This document shows positions 40,441-56,650 of a DNA stretch of 64,000 nucleotides, piece by piece (the first letter of the stretch is position 1; every line of letters starts with the position of its first letter). The notes under the pieces are model-generated. The model was not told the DNA's origin. It was given only the letters and a program-made list of their open reading frames with translations, and made no database searches. This DNA comes from Lytechinus pictus. Taxonomy: Eukaryota. Location: assembly GCF_037042905.1 (NCBI RefSeq), contig NC_087245.1:15998001-16062000 (forward strand), in the 5' to 3' direction. Both the position numbers and the translations under genes were made by a program.

Positions 40441-41184
40441 TATGACAGGCCGGTCATGCCATAAGCCGTCATTCATTCACTCACTCGAGCATGCCGAGTG
40501 AGTGATTGATTTGTGCATATCTTCCCATCACTCACTTGGGAGAGTGAGTGAGTGAACAGTTATATCCAATTAGAGAGCTAAAATCGTTATCGAGACCGCC
40601 TCACTGAAATGGTTGTACATCCAATCGAATGGATGTACAACCACTCGAGTGAACGTACAACCACTCGAGTGAACGTACAACCACTCGAGTGAATGTACAA
40701 CCACTCGAGTGAACGTACAACCACTCGAGTGAACGTACAACCACTCGAGTGAACGTACAACCACTCGAGTGAACGTACAACCACTCGAGTGAATGTACAA
40801 CCACTCGAATGGATGTACAACCACTCGAATGGATGTACAACCACTCGAGTGAACGTACAACCACTCGAGTGAACGTACAACCACTCGAGTGAACGTACAA
40901 CCACTCGAGTGAACGTACAACCACTCGAGTGAATGTACAACCACTCGAATGGATGTACAACCACTCGAGTGAACGTACAACCACTCGAGTGAACGTACAA
41001 CCACTCGAGTGAATGTACAACCACTTCAGTGACGGGGGTCTCGATAACGATTCTAGCTCTCTGATTTGATAAAACTGTTCACTCACTCATTCTCCCGAGT
41101 GAGTGGTGGTAAAATACGTACAAATCATTCACTCACTCGAGTGAGTGAATGAATGACGGCTTATGGCATGAACGGCCCGTCATA
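40441..41184. mobile_element. TIR element (~175-bp TIRs) containing a 20-bp tandem array
   Basis: gtttca|tatgac...gtcata|gtttca (6-bp duplication). The arms 40441-40620 and ~41015-41184 are imperfect reverse complements. Confidence 0.85.
40621..41020. repeat. Minisatellite: 20 copies of a 20-bp unit (ccactcgagtgaacgtacaa)
   Basis: Head-to-tail units with three recurring variants and no spacers; each unit has a palindromic core cactcgagtg. Confidence 0.97.
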
Positions 41185-47875: not shown

Positions 47876-48119
47876 CTTTAAACAAGGCCCTGTATCTGTA
47901 ATGATATTTATATCACATACCTACCGACTGGGAAAACAAATATTCGCAAAAACCGAGTGGGTGCCACTGATATGATTTCGAGCTCAATTTGCTTTGGATT
48001 TCTTATTTTAACCACTGTTTCCGAATCGGAATCGCTACCTGAGAGGTAGTGGCCAACCAGCGAGCAGCCACAGAAGCGAACAAACCCAGTCCCATGACGT
48101 CATAGACACCGTCGCGACG

Positions 48120-50121
48120 CACAGTGGGCCAGGAGAGAGCAAAAGTGCGCCAAAACTGGTTTTTGGTCATGAAACAAATTTTGTTTTTTTCATGTTCTAA
48201 GCAAAGATAAGAACCTGTAGAATGCCTCCGTACAATATTTCTCCATTAAATTGAATATTAGTTGCCCATTTTTATTCAATGTTACCGGAAAATGACTCTT
48301 TACGGCTACCGCATGTGTAAATGACACGTTTTAGATATTTCACTGTTTTAACAAAACGGATTGCTTAATTTATTTCTAATTCACGGTGCTCTTTGATGAA
48401 TAATTGTTTGAAGTGATCAAAGATTTTAAAGATAAAATGATAATCCCTTCAGAGGCAATTTTGGACGAAACCATTTGACAATGGGGGTGTTTTAGCATTT
48501 TTTTTTTTCATGAGCATTTCTTTTACAAATTGCTGCCGATTGCTGCGCTGTAGATACCATGGCGGTCTTTGTTATAGTTCATGCTTTACACTGATACCAA
48601 ATTTAGCTGCATATACGTGCATTTTCTGGAGATATAACAAATTTTCCAACCACATGTTCGCCGTATTTATCACAAAAATCGGTCCAAGTTACTGTCCCAT
48701 TATGCGCGTGCATGCCGAACGTTGCGGGTGACATTAAACATCAAACTCCCCGTCGCGTTCTGGGAGAGAGAGAGAGAGAGAGGGGGGGGGGGGGTGTCTG
48801 GCTCAAGTGTGTGGCTCTTGTGACTGGTGTCTGCCTTTAAAATATTTTCGTTAAACATATGTAAAGGCAAGCTTTCATTTCCAATTCCACTAACTATATA
48901 ATAATACATGTAACGCAACTTCATTTTGATGCCAAACTGTTCCATCCCGTGTTCCATATCTGAAATGCTGTCACACTGAGAAGATTAATTCTTAAGGTAA
49001 GGTTCCCGGGTAAGATTATATATTTGGTTTGTTGTTCATAAAACCAAGTAGAGGCTACTGTATATCGCTATAACACACATGACTAGGGATGTGATAGGTC
49101 TCTCGCAGTTTTCTGACAAAATATGAAAATGTGTATAGGACACAGATGGGATATACGTGGGCTATATTACATGTATAAATTGCGTTATCATTATTAGTAT
49201 TTATCCCACAAAAGGGTTTGTAACTTCACATACACGTATGAATTCGTTTATCTCTTGGCTCATTCTAAATTTGCCATAATTGTTGGTATCGATCAAGAAG
49301 GAAGTGTATATTATCATTTCAATGATTGTTTGGTTTATGATTCTCATTGACTTTATATGTATTCCACAGGCTAATGGTAACAGGTGACATTGTGATTAGT
49401 AGCAAGTTTTTAAGAGTACAACAATCACAGTCTCTTCCCCCTGATGTTCAAAGTATGCTAAAAAGATCCTCTCACCAAAGACATAATAGTTGTTGAGATA
49501 GTAGAGAGAGACTCTGATTCGGAATAACTTTGTATACGCCGTTCTTGGTAGGCCTTGTAGGGCCTTGTACTGATTAACCTGCATAGGACCCGGCCTCTAT
49601 TCACTGGAATCATTATTTTAAAGATTTCACTGTCCACTTCTGGTATCAATCCATTTTAATTTGTGTAGGTGTGGTTAATCATTGTACACAGGGAATAAAA
49701 AACTCCTTTTCATTTTTTTTTACAATTTCACTTTGAATTTTACAATTCCGGATTCATGGTAGGACGCCCTCTTTAAGCGATACTCAAGTCACCAATTGAA
49801 TTATTTGTACCCCGAGCCCAGACTTTTCTGGTTTGGTTGCCTGTTTGTGTGTTTGCTGTTTGCTGATATGCTTAATTATTGCTGAAATTTATCTAAAACT
49901 AGTTTCTGAAAATTTGAAACTTATTGTAGAATTAGAAACATGTAATTTCTGCTCAAATGTTAACAGCCAATCAGAAAGCAGTGTTTTACCGACGTCATCA
50001 ATATTTGAAAATACTTTTATTGAATTCTACGGGTGAAATTACCCCTATCTACCAAATTTAATCATACAAATGTGTGAAAAATGGGTTTTGGCGCACTTTG
50101 GGTTCATTCTGGCCCACTGTG
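48120..50121. mobile_element. Non-autonomous Transib/RAG-like DNA transposon with RSS-like ends
   Basis: cgacg|CACAGTGGGCCAG...AAAGTGCGCCAAAAC at the left end and GTTTTGGCGCACTTTG...CTGGCCCACTGTG|cgacg at the right end; perfect 5-bp TSD CGACG; no intact transposase ORF inside. Confidence 0.9.
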
Positions 50122-52329
50122 CGACGGTGAGAGTTGGCGCATCGGCCTCATCTGCATGCTCATTAATAATTCATATTTACGTCTTAAGTTTGCGAAACCT
50201 TTGTATTTAGCTATACCCTGTTTATGTTTTTTTACGTGATATGGAAAGTATTAATGCTTGTTGTCGTGTGGAATTTGTTTTGACAGAAATATTGCACTTC
50301 TGGGAAAAATATAAACCCATCTGAAACCGTATGGCTTAATTAAATCTGTGTTCGGTCCATGGTTTAAATTAAAAGTTCCCCTTATAAAACGCTTTATTTG
50401 ATTTAGACGCGAGGCAAAAGAAAGGGTAAACAGGTAAATGTAATTATCTAATAATTCTTCCGACGAAATTCAATATATCATAAAATAAAAGTTGCTTTAT
50501 TTTATTTCCATCGTTAAAAACTACCCTCTGCCCCCCCCCCCCCCCATAGAAATGCATGCGCAGTTACTGGTCTTTCTTTATGGGAACCCTGAGTAAGCAC
50601 GGAAGGAAGAGGGAAAATTGGGAAATGCAGAAGAGAAATGAGGAAAAAGGGTGAAGGGAAGGGAGAGAAAGAACTGGGAGTTATGGTACAGAGGGTGAGG
50701 GAGCGAGGGGCCAAGGAGAAATAGTGATAGGAGGCAGGATAGATAAGAGAGAGAGGGTGGAAGGTTACGGTTATAGTTGAAGAACAGGGAGTGCCGGAAG
50801 GAGAGAGGGGGTTAGACAGAGTTGAGGGGGGTCAGTGAGGTAGAGGATGAGTGTGGGGGAAGAAATGGAGACATACAGGGGAAATAGAGTGATAGAGGGG
50901 AAAATAAAGGGAATGGTGAGACAGACATGACAGAGAGAGAGGTATAAAGAAAGCAGGGGCTTACAGATTGGGTGTGGGGCTTGGGGGTCTCCCCCCCCCC
51001 CAGGAAAGAAATACATTTGCAGGGCTACCGCGCGATCTATGTGTAGCCTATTGACGAAACTCGTAAGAACTTATATGCCTACGATATATCACATGATATA
51101 TGAGTAAAGGCAAATGGGACCATGGCACATGCAATGAAACAGTAAAGTGAACAGCTTATTACAGTACACCATACACTTTCATACGAATTTTCAGTAGATC
51201 TGTTTTGGGGCTATTATCAACCTTTATATTATGTCATACATGCCGCCGTACTTTCTGAATTTTATGCACAATGTGTAGGAATCCATTCTTGCACGTACGA
51301 ACAATCAACAATAATGGGATTTTTTTTCATTTCTATATTAATGAGGTAAAACTAAGCAAAATAAAAATAATCAAAAGAAAAGCGTAACAATTTCTCTCTC
51401 TCTTTTGTGTGTGTGTGTGTGGGGGGGGGGGGGTGTATATTGCCATAAAACGAACCTAACTTTCAAAAATAACGTTGTAGATAATCATTATATAGATTCC
51501 TAGAGTAAATTTCTCCTTGCCAATTTTGCTGTATCTTTAGCATCATCAGAGGTTAAAAGCTTTATAAAGGACTGTTTGCTGAGTCGAAAGAACGTGTTCT
51601 CCCTGTTATATTCAAACACGTGCATTATCATACAAACAATTTGCCTTTAATCATCGTTGTTTATATCATACGTGTTGTTTTCAGCTTCTCGGCTGTTGTA
51701 ATTAAACATGCCCCATATCTGACCATGCGAGAGTCTAATATTTAAACGCTAACCATTTTACTTTAAACTTTATTCCCACATAGGCGATACGTGCCCAGAA
51801 ATTGCCCCCATTCCGTTCCTTAACAAGGGAAGAAGTGAAAAATGCTCAGTTATTTTGTTAAGACAGAAATTCAATAAAATAAGTTATTAAATAATATCTC
51901 ACCTAAAATTTGGTCGATGCACTTACCATGTTGACGAAAAATGGTATATTGTAATTCAATTTTACAGTAGGTTTTAATGGAATGGCAAGCAGAGATACGA
52001 TGGTTATAAACTGGAACATTTTTAGACATACCCCTTTCTCTATTCGAGAGCTGGAGTGATTTAAAACACATATACGGGCTGTCTATATACAATACCCGTA
52101 TCAGTGTTTAATTGTTCGTAACGGCGTCATCTCACGAGGAAATTATCTTTATTATTAATCACGTGGAGCCTTCTCTGTATGCTGGTTTAGTCAGTAATGT
52201 ACGCAATTCATCCTTATGGTGGTAAGCTTATTTTACTCTTTGTAATTCAAACAATGTGACCTTATCGTTTATTGTCTGTAAGCTTAAGTCCATGCGTCTT
52301 CCGCTCTTTTTCATCCTACTTCTGCTCCT

Positions 52330-52420: not shown

Positions 52421-53645
52421 TGGAAATAAGTTTGAACGGCATCTTTTAGGAATTACTATTTCTGTCTTTCATTATTTTATGAAATATTTATTTTCACTTT
52501 TAGTCATTTTTCTTTGCTCGTTCATGGTCTATTCCCTCATCTTTCAAATTGCCAGTTTTTCTTTTTGGTCTCTAATTTCCAAAACATTAAGTGAAATTTA
52601 TAACATTAAAGAACTCCAAATCCAATCGATGTCAGGTTATTTTGAATTTGATCGCTCTTGCAGTCGGTTGCGATGGTGTGACTGCCAGAAAATTACACTA
52701 ATTCATTTCAGATCATTTCAATGTCGTTCATGCATTATTCCTCAGTTGATGTGCAATTCATCGCAGGGTTATAGTTGTTAAAAAGTAATAGATTCAGCAT
52801 ATCTACCTCACAATTTGTTTTTTTTTAACTGATCTCGGATAACCTGTTCCGGGCCTCGTTAGTAATGATTTTTGTATGTTCACGCGATATTGGTAATTCA
52901 ATAATTAGATTTATAGCTAAATTGACGTTAGCTGGGTGTTAGGTCTTCCAGGAGGCATTTCGTTGAAGGGAGGGGCAGATGACAACACCGTGTCAAAAAT
53001 TGTGCAATGTTCTTCAGTTTCTTGGACGTGCCTGTGCCATCCGGAGTACTCATGATTTGACACTCAGATATAAGGAAGTGGTTATTGCATTTTTCCTTAT
53101 TTTAGGAACAACACGTTTTTCTCTCTCATAAATTCTTAATTGTTTGTTCGACTTTCCGTGTACCCTATTTGTTGAAATCCGCCAACCGCCTCGCTCCAAA
53201 TTGGTATTTGAGGTGATATGATACCTGCATCATCACCAATGTTCTCTAGTCAAGTATAATGTTGTTATTATTCATGATTTTCACACGATACCCAGTTCTT
53301 TACCACTATCGATGTGAAGTGATCACATCGGAAGGAGAGGAAATAAAAACAATACAACATAATTATAATGATTATGTTTATGCTTGTTCTTTCAGATCTC
53401 ATAGTTGCTGTGCATAAAAGCATTGCAGTTTCTCTCCTGATCAGGAATTTAGAGATTAACAACTTCAGACTTTATATCATTTGAAACTTAAAGAAATATT
53501 CTGTTAGCATGGAGAGAATGAACTTTGTTTAGCAGTAACAAAATATGACTGCTGGATTACTACACGTAAATGATATATTTCTCGCATTAATCTCAAAAGG
53601 ATAAGGATACATTCATCAACAAATATCTGTGTGAAACTACACAAA

Positions 53646-54719
53646 ATGGATGTCACTTCGACCATGACAATGATACACTTGAGCACCATCGTGGATTGGA
53701 ACCAAACAGCTATCGTTAGAATTGAATGGTCATGGAAGCAGATCAACTGGTCCTATTCTGAAATACTTCACCTATGCTCTGCTGTCCTTGGGATAGTTGG
53801 TAACCTGATGGTTATACTGGCACTCCGCGAGCGGCGCGCGGCTGGACGTTCGACAGATACCTTGATGAGCGCTCTAGCCTTTGCGGACTTCATGACGTCC
53901 CTTTTCACCATCCCTGTGCCATCCGCGTCAACAGTTCCGGACTCTCCTCTGGGGCAGTTGTACTGCAAGATGACCCTACCCGGGTTCTTTCTCTTCGTCG
54001 CTGCAACAGCATCAAGCTACATCCTCATGGCGATATCTGTAGAAAGGTTCCTTGCTGTTGTGTACCCTCTGCAGTTCAACCAACTCATGGCCCGGAAGCA
54101 GATGCTTGCCATCGTGATATCAGCCATCTGGATCATTTCGTTTCTGGTCTACGGCATCTTCATCGCTACTGCGGTGATCGCCAACCCCATGACACACACC
54201 TGCACCTTGTACTTCCCTACTGTTGCTGCTAAGGTGACGTTCGGATACTTCATGTTCATCTACCGCTTCGTCCTACCTGTCCTGGTGATGTTAGTTACGC
54301 AGGTGTTCATTGCCTACAAGCTCCATCGCCACTCCGTTCAGTTCCGAGGACAAGAAGCTGTGTCCTTCCACATCAAGGCCAGAAATCGCGTCCTGAAGCT
54401 TATGTCAATCGTTATCATTGTTTTCGTCATTACTTGGGGTCCGGGACAGGTCAGTTTCTTTCTCTTCACCATCGGCATACTGCCACCATCTTATATCGGT
54501 GGTCCTTTGCACAAGTTCATCATCGTTTTCACCACTTACAATTCGTGCATGAATCCAGTCATTTACATAGTGTGGTTCCCGGAATTTCGACTAGCCCTGA
54601 GAAAGATGTTCACGTGCCAGCCTTCGACAGACGGCCAATCCGAGGAAGCAAAAATAGAAACCAAAACTGATTCTGTGGATGTCTCCAGGCGTGCCTCAAA
54701 CATATCAAATAATATTTAG
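53646..54719 (+). CDS. Class A (rhodopsin-family) GPCR, intronless, peptide-receptor-like orphan (357 aa)
   Basis: Seven hydrophobic segments with GN (TM1), LAFAD (TM2), C at the top of TM3, ERF, W (TM4), ECL2 Cys, WGP (TM6), NSCMNPVIY (TM7) and FR helix 8. First ATG is in aaaATGg context; the ORF track starts earlier at a GTG. Confidence 0.95.
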   Translation: MDVTSTMTMIHLSTIVDWNQTAIVRIEWSWKQINWSYSEILHLCSAVLGIVGNLMVILALRERRAAGRSTDTLMSALAFADFMTSLFTIPVPSASTVPDSPLGQLYCKMTLPGFFLFVAATASSYILMAISVERFLAVVYPLQFNQLMARKQMLAIVISAIWIISFLVYGIFIATAVIANPMTHTCTLYFPTVAAKVTFGYFMFIYRFVLPVLVMLVTQVFIAYKLHRHSVQFRGQEAVSFHIKARNRVLKLMSIVIIVFVITWGPGQVSFFLFTIGILPPSYIGGPLHKFIIVFTTYNSCMNPVIYIVWFPEFRLALRKMFTCQPSTDGQSEEAKIETKTDSVDVSRRASNISNNI

Positions 54720-55173: not shown

Positions 55174-56650
55174 TTAGTGACGTAATGGTCGATGATCGGG
55201 TCGTAGACATTCGGAAGCTAGTATCGCCCCCCCCCCGTCTCTGTTGAGAGAAGGTCTGAACGCCCGGATGTAGATGGCCTCTTTCACACCTCTCGAGAAG
55301 TACCGCGGCTCCCTGTCCGGCACTTGTACCTTGTTGATGTCAACACGATGACCAGGGGATTCGATGTGGATGTGCTGAGATACCTCGGAGGAAGTGGAGC
55401 TAGGGCGTCGATGTTCAAGGAATCTTGTCCTAAGGGAACGTTCTGTTTCTCCTATATAAGATTCCTGACATAAACCCTTAGTCGTCTGTCCTTGACAAGG
55501 AATCAAATAAATAGGACCGGTGATATCCTTCTTCTCTGTCTTATCTTTCGGCGCAACCAAGTACTGTCTAAGAGTCCTTGTTGGTTTGTAGCACACCCTA
55601 ATGCCAAATTGACTGAAATTCCTACGAAGGGCTTCCGATAATCCTTTAACGTACGGAAGTACAATCTGTCCTTTGGGTGGCTTGGGGTTGTCCTTTCTAG
55701 GCGGAGACTTTCCTTTAGCTGAGTTATCGATCTTGTTGAAGACCCAACTAGGATAACCGCACTTGGAGAGAGCCCGTTTAACGTGCGCTTTTTCCTTAGA
55801 AACGGTGACTGGATCTGTGATAACCGCTTCCGCTCGATGGAAAAGAGTCTTGATCACACCAAGCTTATGTTCAAGTGGGTGATTAGAGGAAAAGTTCAGG
55901 TATTGGTCGGTGTGCGTAGGTTTACGGTAAACTTTGATATCCAAGTTGCCGTCTGGTTGAATAACCGTCAAAGTGTCAAGAAATGCCAGCGACCGTCCTT
56001 CCTCACCTTCAGTGGTGAATTGCATGTCCGGATCAATCAAGTTCAGATGATCAGTAAATTCCTGTGAGAATTCTTTCTTGAGTTTAGTGTGTGTATCATC
56101 AACATATCGAAACCACCATATTGGAGGATGAGGTGCTGACTCAAGAGCTAATTGTTCAAAATGTTCCATGTACAGATTACAAACAATGGGGGAAATTGGC
56201 GATCCCATCGCTGCTCCATGGATCTGCTGATAATATATGCCATTGTGAACAAAATAAGTACATCGCAGGCAAACCTCCAACAGTTTACAATGTGGTCCAC
56301 TGATAAGCGAGTCCTATCTTTCCAAGTGTTCACGCTCTGAAGTTTGGATTGGATAATCTTCAGGGCCTTGTCAATAGGAACTGAAGTGAAAGGAGCTGTC
56401 ACGTCATATGATCTCAGTTCCTCGTCTTCCTCAACACGCGCATTCTTAATACATTCAGCAAAAGATTGAGAATCAGTTACATGGTGACAAGTTTGACCAA
56501 CTAAAGGTGACAGAATGTAGGCAAGATGCTTGGCACAGATATATGTAATTGATCCAATACTACTTACAATCGGTCGAAGTGGAATGTTCGGTTTATGGAT
56601 TTTAGGGAGACCATAAAACTAAGGAGGGGTATCTGTAGTTGGGTATAACC
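55174..56650 (-). pseudogene. Penelope RT/GIY-YIG endonuclease ORF, disrupted
   Basis: Motifs FYGLPKIHK..PLRPIVS, SYDVT, GAAMGSPISP, RYVDD, FLD, VYRKPTHT and IYLIPC...YIGET.RSLRTRF.EH. In-frame stop near 56620, frameshift near 56285, and a probable frameshift in the C-run near 55230. Confidence 0.92.

Follow-up and report, generated by a model that had tools for sequence, protein, structure and literature searches.

Transposons of the Transib superfamily have ends that resemble the recombination signal sequences (RSS) of V(D)J recombination. As given in the accessible parts of Kapitonov and Jurka 2005 (PMC1131882), such an end consists of a heptamer beginning with CAC, a spacer of 22-23 bp and an A-rich nonamer-like box, ~38 bp altogether, and 5-bp target site duplications and GC-rich targets are on record there as well. 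According to the available portion of Martin et al. 2023, many echinoderms carry Transibs with intact terminal inverted repeats. Here, we describe a 2002-bp element in a stretch of 64,000 nucleotides from the sea urchin Lytechinus pictus (RefSeq assembly GCF_037042905.1, contig NC_087245.1, positions 15,998,001 to 16,062,000 of the forward strand; this whole stretch is called the window below). The element very probably is one copy of a non-coding, non-autonomous family of Transib-superfamily DNA transposons, called famA, with ~130 copies in the genome.

Several described systems come close to it. TransibN1_SP from the purple sea urchin has termini that are printed as CACAGTGGGCCAGGGAGGAACCAAAGTGCGCCAAAA at both ends, and its duplications are printed as CGGCG, CGACG and similar, i.e., CGNCG (PMC1131882, Fig. 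S4g). The purple sea urchin also harbors Transib1_SP, an autonomous element of 4132 bp which, in the accessible text of the same paper (PMC1131882), encodes a 676-aa transposase and has the same kind of duplication, CGGCG; it thus belongs to the same host group as the famA element, but encodes a transposase, which the latter does not. RSS12/RSS23-like ends were described in 2005 for Transib5, Transib2_AG and TransibN1-3_AG (PMC1131882, Fig. 4C, and discussed in PMC8355894, as far as these texts are available). They share the CAC heptamer, the A-rich nonamer-like box and the 5-bp duplication with the window element, but their spacer lengths are unlike at the two ends, whereas the spacing of the window element is equal. 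Finally, Hztransib from Helicoverpa zea likewise has a heptamer-like tip and 5-bp duplications, though its ends show little or no nonamer likeness in the available text (Carmona et al. 2016, PMC4840297), whereas the famA ends match the RSS nonamer at up to 7/9 positions. A CGNCG preference had been cited for Hztransib in an earlier reading of the window made from its letters alone (the sequence-only reading); this is unconfirmed in the accessible part of that paper, which states duplications of 5 bp that are "slightly enriched for GC".

The element occupies positions 48120-50121 of the window, with the tips CACAGTG on the left and CACTGTG on the right (top strand), and is organized as follows.

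48115-48119, no strand: left target site duplication CGACG, read from the sequence; paralogous empty sites have one pentamer here.
48120-50121, plus strand: very probably a non-autonomous Transib-type element of 2002 bp (famA), on the basis of its ends, duplication, family copies and lack of coding content.
48120-48164, plus strand: left terminal inverted repeat, with the heptamer CACAGTG at 48120-48126 and the variable 9 bp GAGAGAGCA at 48133-48141.
48142-48155, plus strand: invariant subterminal block AAAGTGCGCCAAAA of the left end (end positions 23-36), which contains both A-runs; identified by comparison of five end types and present in the published TransibN1_SP termini.
48764-48795, no strand: (GA)n run that gives way to a G-run, simple repeat within the element, read from the sequence.
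50086-50099, minus strand: invariant block AAAGTGCGCCAAAA at the right end, at the same distance from its tip as on the left, identified by end comparison.
50077-50121, minus strand: right terminal inverted repeat, with the heptamer at 50115-50121 and the variable 9 bp reading inward as AATGAACCC.
50122-50126, no strand: right target site duplication CGACG, read from the sequence.

The terminal inverted repeats are ~45 bp long; a repeat search returned arms of 50 nt, target site duplication included, that are 80% complementary. Read inward, the left end is CACAGTGGGCCAG GAGAGAGCA AAAGTGCGCCAAAAC TGG TTTTT and the right end is CACAGTGGGCCAG AATGAACCC AAAGTGCGCCAAAAC CCA TTTTT, and the end signature of famA has the form CACAGTGGGCC...AAAGTGCGCCAAAA. 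The CACAGTG heptamer of the left end is followed by GCAAAAGTG at 12 bp and by CCAAAACTG at 23 bp, while the right end, read inward, has CCCAAAGTG at 12 bp and CCAAAACCC at 23 bp, the latter agreeing with ACAAAAACC at 7/9 positions. The sequence-only reading had reported these tips with their perfect CGACG duplication, the motifs at both spacings including the 7/9 match, and a difference between the ends mainly around the 12-bp-spaced motif, and all of this can be read directly at the locus: the arms differ at 6/9 of positions 14-22, and in addition at positions 38-40, and are otherwise identical through position 45. The 13-mer tip CACAGTGGGCCAG occurs twice in the window where 0.01 occurrences are expected, and the pattern CACAGTGGGCCAG-N9-AAAGTGCGCCAA is found, allowing up to 2 mismatches, 894 times in the genome (446 forward, 448 reverse) as compared to 0 times for the reversed control. 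The end structure therefore is not due to chance.

Between its ends, the element lacks coding capacity. There is no open reading frame of more than 95 aa inside it, a Pfam scan of nine translated internal open reading frames gave no family below an E-value of 0.05, and an Rfam scan of the element gave no match; apart from the (GA)n/G-run, its interior has little that is notable. The classification as a non-autonomous Transib/RAG-like element, as put forward in the sequence-only reading, is thus supported by the ends, the GC-rich 5-bp duplications and the absence of coding content.

With respect to the published definitions, the element has the features by which Kapitonov and Jurka 2005 characterize Transibs, namely a 5-bp duplication, a CAC heptamer of the CACAATG/CACAGTG type and GC-rich targets, and both of its ends have CAC at positions 1-3 and AAAA at positions 33-36, covering nonamer bases 5-6. 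The match to TransibN1_SP goes further, since the arrangement CACAGTGGGCCAG-N9-AAAGTGCGCCAAAA is identical at positions 1-13 and 23-36, 31/36 positions agree at each famA end, and TransibN1_SP also shares the CGNCG 5-bp duplications and the lack of a transposase gene. The two differ in that the TransibN1_SP copies in the figure span ~560-910 bp as opposed to 2.0 kb for the window element, and in that TransibN1_SP carries one 9-mer, GGAGGAACC, at both ends, whereas the famA ends have unlike 9-mers; this comparison covers the termini and the copy length, the interior of TransibN1_SP not being printed in the paper (PMC1131882). The sequence-only reading had allowed that identity to an already described symmetric Transib family would take away the novelty but not the classification. 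The match to the symmetric TransibN1_SP ends amounts essentially to this case: the classification is retained, whereas the ends are of the TransibN1_SP type and hence not new. A literature search found no paper on the present 2-kb family. However, V(D)J-signal-like Transib ends, CG-rich 5-bp duplications and the sea-urchin end sequence itself have been in print since 2005, such that the element as such matters little, and famA is an ordinary non-autonomous Transib family with a published sea-urchin end type. By analogy, a Transib1_SP-like element is the likely kind of autonomous partner.

The size of the family was determined in the whole assembly (811.7 Mb in 368 contigs). With the left 101 bp of the element, 146 candidates were obtained, 40 of which were scored; all of these have 99-100% identity (100% in 26/40). 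Searching for the 34-mer ends of famA with up to 2 mismatches gave 133 left and 127 right ends (reversed controls: 0), a direct count that corresponds to ~130 copies, and among the first 100 places listed for each end, the 34-mer was exact at 91 left and 97 right ends. Fifteen full-length copies, the window copy included, measure 1969-2067 bp; their pairwise identity is 93.0-99.7% with a median of 96.7% (97.3% for the window copy relative to the other 14), but these figures are biased upward, as the first-fetched copies were chosen for 100% identity over the first 101 bp. Judging from the median pairwise identity and from the 91 exact left ends, famA appears to be a fairly young family. Two pairs of copies (L004/L005 and L015/L016) have flanks that are common to each pair and probably are segmental duplicates.

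Target duplications were inspected in 25 copies, which comprise 20 loci and the window, with six re-fetched at greater length, and four added loci. Both ends were located in 23 of these (L024 and L025 have no recognisable right tip), and 21/23 have a perfect 5-bp duplication, which reads CGNCG in 19 cases and TGACG and CGCTG in the other two. When the probable duplicate pairs are each counted once, the duplication is perfect at 19 of 21 independent loci. Most of the other copies examined thus carry the 5-bp duplications that the sequence-only reading had implied, and the preference for CGNCG is directly visible in them. The famA insertions mark CGNCG hot spots of the genome. Furthermore, as an abundant family, famA is a source of many natural end variants for tests of how Transib or urchin RAG-like proteins recognise ends.

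At the present locus, the target was provided by another repeat.

47880-48114, no strand: left part of the older interspersed repeat that hosts the element (matched at 48 or more genomic places, ~70-95% identity); the repeat resumes on the right side (50127 to ~50200).

In five paralogues of this host repeat, the sequence is uninterrupted across the insertion point and reads ...ATAGACAC-CGACG/CGATG/TGACG-GTG/ATG/TTG.... Because these empty sites have one pentamer, and the window has two around the element, the CGACG duplication arose on insertion, which is classical empty-site evidence.

A further detail of the site is that the window reads ACAC-CGTCG-CGACG-[element]-CGACG-GTG (48105-48119 and 50122-50129), where the host-repeat paralogues read ACAC-CGACG-GTG. 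The extra pentamer CGTCG to the left of the duplication is the reverse complement of CGACG, and CGTCGCGACG is thus palindromic. One possible origin of this pentamer is a previous round of insertion and excision at the hot spot that left a footprint, a hairpin end having been filled in palindromically; a simple indel in a diverged copy of the repeat would explain it equally well.

Contigs from sequencing runs under three coded organism labels align to the element at 90-99% identity, which indicates that relatives of famA exist outside the present assembly. Among the sequencing-run records, none spans the insertion locus, and among the runs listed as containing the element, none is recorded as RNA. 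One joint skips the element, leading from 48108 to 50134 with 13 other letters in between, and RNA loose ends lie at 48067 and 48111. An empty allele of the present locus was considered as an explanation and rejected, since the joint and the loose ends fit paralogous copies of the host repeat, and such paralogues are matched by RNA reads of a coded run. The sequencing-run data therefore are uninformative with respect to insertion polymorphism or expression.

Most of the 894 ends found in the genome belong to a second non-autonomous family, famB, which is ~1.2 kb long, more abundant than famA and unrelated to it in its interior (examples are the loci L041 and L042). Its ends are CACAGTGGGCCAG AATGAGTTG AAAGTGCGCCAAAA... 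and CACAGTGGGCCGG GGCGAAACA AAAGTGCGCCAAAA.... At 3/8 famB loci, a right end with the matching pentamer behind it was found, though this right-end search selects matching duplications by construction and does not constitute an independent duplication count. A third end type is low-copy, with three occurrences on one contig. Across the five end types compared, positions 1-11, 13 and 23-36 are invariant, including the CACAGTG heptamer, and positions 14-22 are variable; the A-runs at the two spacings pointed out in the sequence-only reading belong to the invariant block AAAGTGCGCCAAAA. In famA and famB alike, the 9-mer at positions 14-22 is G-rich at one end and contains AATGA at the other, and the similarity between the G-rich ends of famA and famB extends past the terminal inverted repeat (71% over 124 nt). 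The simplest reading of this consistent pairing is that the left and right ends would have kept an identity already present in a shared autonomous ancestor, as is the case for many transposons. On contig 2 (29474423-29474498), a famA right end and a famB left end lie tip to tip, 8 bp apart, which suggests two insertions at neighbouring CG-rich pentamers.

As to how famA may have been mobilised, a Transib-type DDE transposase, supplied in trans, would bind the two ~45-bp terminal inverted repeats, in which it would recognise the CACAGTG tip as well as the block AAAGTGCGCCAAAA further in. Nicking between the flank and CAC would follow, and the element would be freed via hairpins on the flanking DNA and inserted at CG-rich CGNCG sites through cuts staggered by 5 bp, the presumed target at the present locus being the CGACG within the older repeat. 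Such cut-and-paste chemistry is likely for famA by analogy with the published work on Hztransib (PMC4840297), and the transposase likely was of the Transib type.

Several observations weigh against this assignment. Among the 23 copies with both ends, two show imperfect duplications, namely TACGG/CGGCG (L010) and CAGTG/CAGCG (L023), and the upward bias of the identity figures given above also has to be borne in mind. No gene for a Transib transposase was found in the genome with RAG1-biased protein queries. Seven of the longer famA copies were opened, and all of them owe their length to nested inserts that are unrelated; a reading frame like that of RAG1 or Transib is absent from each, so that longer, coding copies as envisaged in the sequence-only reading did not turn up among them. 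These seven measure 9.3 kb (L021), 3.2 kb (L023), 4.2 kb (L045, whose insert is a reverse-transcriptase/GIY-YIG element), 8.5 kb (L053) and 6.2 kb each (L054 and L055), and the seventh (L024) was assessed by BLAST only. At a locus of the third end type (L052), there is only a nested insert resembling a long interspersed nuclear element, and no right end within 5.4 kb. The Pfam RAG1 model (PF12940) gave 17 matches in the genome at E-values up to 0.001 and 22 at E-values up to 10, those inspected being RAG1-like genes, pseudogenes or fragments, and ten RAG1-like loci that were checked have no famA-type ends in their 1.5-kb flanks. However, the blank for the transposase is weak evidence, because the queries were biased towards RAG1 and canonical Transib transposases, according to the accessible parts of the literature, are only distantly similar to RAG1 and as a rule number one or a few copies.

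The RAG1-like core frames of the genome are of two kinds, uninterrupted for 612 and 624 aa (E-values 8e-75 and 8e-68 for Pfam RAG1), and are located on contigs 182 and 233 (L027, L028) and on contig 4 (L029). The copies on contigs 182 and 233 have equal scores and the same open frames, and hence appear to represent a single locus in two haplotypes. A HMMER search with the 612-aa core produced 486 hits, with no Transib transposase among the 150 hits listed. Two hits of low identity (2 tested of the 150 listed) were considered as Transib candidates and rejected, since their best match in PDB was an amphioxus RAGL (RAG-like) protein and no Hztransib chain was returned; a 130-aa fragment on contig 2 was likewise rejected, as it is 55% identical to a RAG1-like gene. 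Contig 9 harbors a tandem array (~18143000-18177300; L056 = 18157000-18165200) with a unit of 4092 bp, in which neighbouring units are 98.3% identical. Every unit contains a degenerate C-terminal piece of a RAG1-like frame, interrupted by stop codons, and the array shows no Transib-type ends or terminal inverted repeats.

This raises the question whether famA was mobilised by a sea urchin RAG1-like/RAG2-like (RAGL, "TransibSU") transposase rather than by a canonical single-gene Transib transposase. RAGL transposons likewise start with a CAC heptamer and make GC-rich 5-bp duplications, as stated in the available portion of Martin et al. 2023; the RAG1-like frames in the genome are open across the whole catalytic core, and the canonical transposase is the one that the RAG1-biased queries failed to find. 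However, RAGL ends have an A-rich TR2 directly after the heptamer (PMC8355894 and Martin et al. 2023, in their accessible parts), whereas positions 8-17 of the famA ends read GGCCAGGAGA and GGCCAGAATG, without such a TR2, and there are no RAG1L or RAG2L genes between the ends. Moreover, echinoid RAGL genes are without flanking terminal inverted repeats, and echinoderms have no known RAGL element capable of transposition according to the available portion of Martin et al. 2023. The ten RAG1-like loci mentioned above lack a famA-type end within 1.5 kb. Ends of the famA type were filed as Transib by Kapitonov and Jurka (PMC1131882). We therefore regard mobilisation by a RAGL transposase as unlikely, and a Transib-type transposase as the preferred source.

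Even less likely, in our view, is a more speculative connection, according to which the ~900 ends with a perfect RSS heptamer could be substrates of domesticated RAG1-like/RAG2-like proteins of the urchin, in cleavage or in Transib silencing, or the G-rich/AATGA pairing could reflect a requirement for unlike ends. If true, the substrate reading would be akin to the "guardian of the genome" hypothesis in the literature.

The sequence-only reading had gone on to suggest that the famA ends, with nonamer-like motifs in both the 12- and the 23-bp register, represent an evolutionary intermediate toward 12/23 asymmetry. There are indeed A-runs at both spacings on both ends; ACAAAAACC is matched at 5-7/9 positions at a spacing of 22-23 in 5/5 end types, and at 5-6/9 positions at a spacing of 10-13 in 4/5, and the G-rich and AATGA 9-mers give famA and famB a consistent left/right identity. 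However, the spacing is identical on both ends, such that the length asymmetry that defines 12/23 (spacers differing by ~11 bp) is absent. The A-runs at positions 23-25 and 33-36, which account for the two "nonamers", belong to a single continuous block of 14 bp, AAAGTGCGCCAAAA, that is invariant, and the "12-spaced nonamer" begins with three freely varying bases (GCA, CCC, TTG, ACA, ACT). TransibN1_SP, which has the same block, is symmetric, with one 9-mer at both ends (PMC1131882), and the conservation of the ends within famA is no argument, given a divergence of only ~3% among the copies. An intermediate toward 12/23 asymmetry hence is the least probable of these proposals: since the block lies in the same register on both ends, these are ordinary left and right transposon ends, not a 12/23 pair, and they differ in sequence rather than spacing, at positions 14-22, the one stretch that is variable among the families as well. 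The A-runs in the two registers lie one helical turn apart.

The element sits in repeat-rich DNA, and two open frames were noted downstream of it.

53574-54719, plus strand: single-exon frame of 381 aa for a rhodopsin-family G protein-coupled receptor (7tm_1, E-value 1.9e-42), 3.4 kb downstream of the element.
55174-56618, minus strand: frame with a weak reverse-transcriptase match (RVT_1, E-value 3.5e-4, below the Pfam cut-off), adjoining the receptor frame.

The second of these frames probably derives from a retroelement, and nothing ties the transposon to the receptor frame. Elsewhere in the window, at 40570-41086 on the minus strand, there are long open frames of a tandem peptide-like repeat (...SLEWLYVHSSGCTFTRVVV...), which points to a minisatellite with a unit of ~57 bp.

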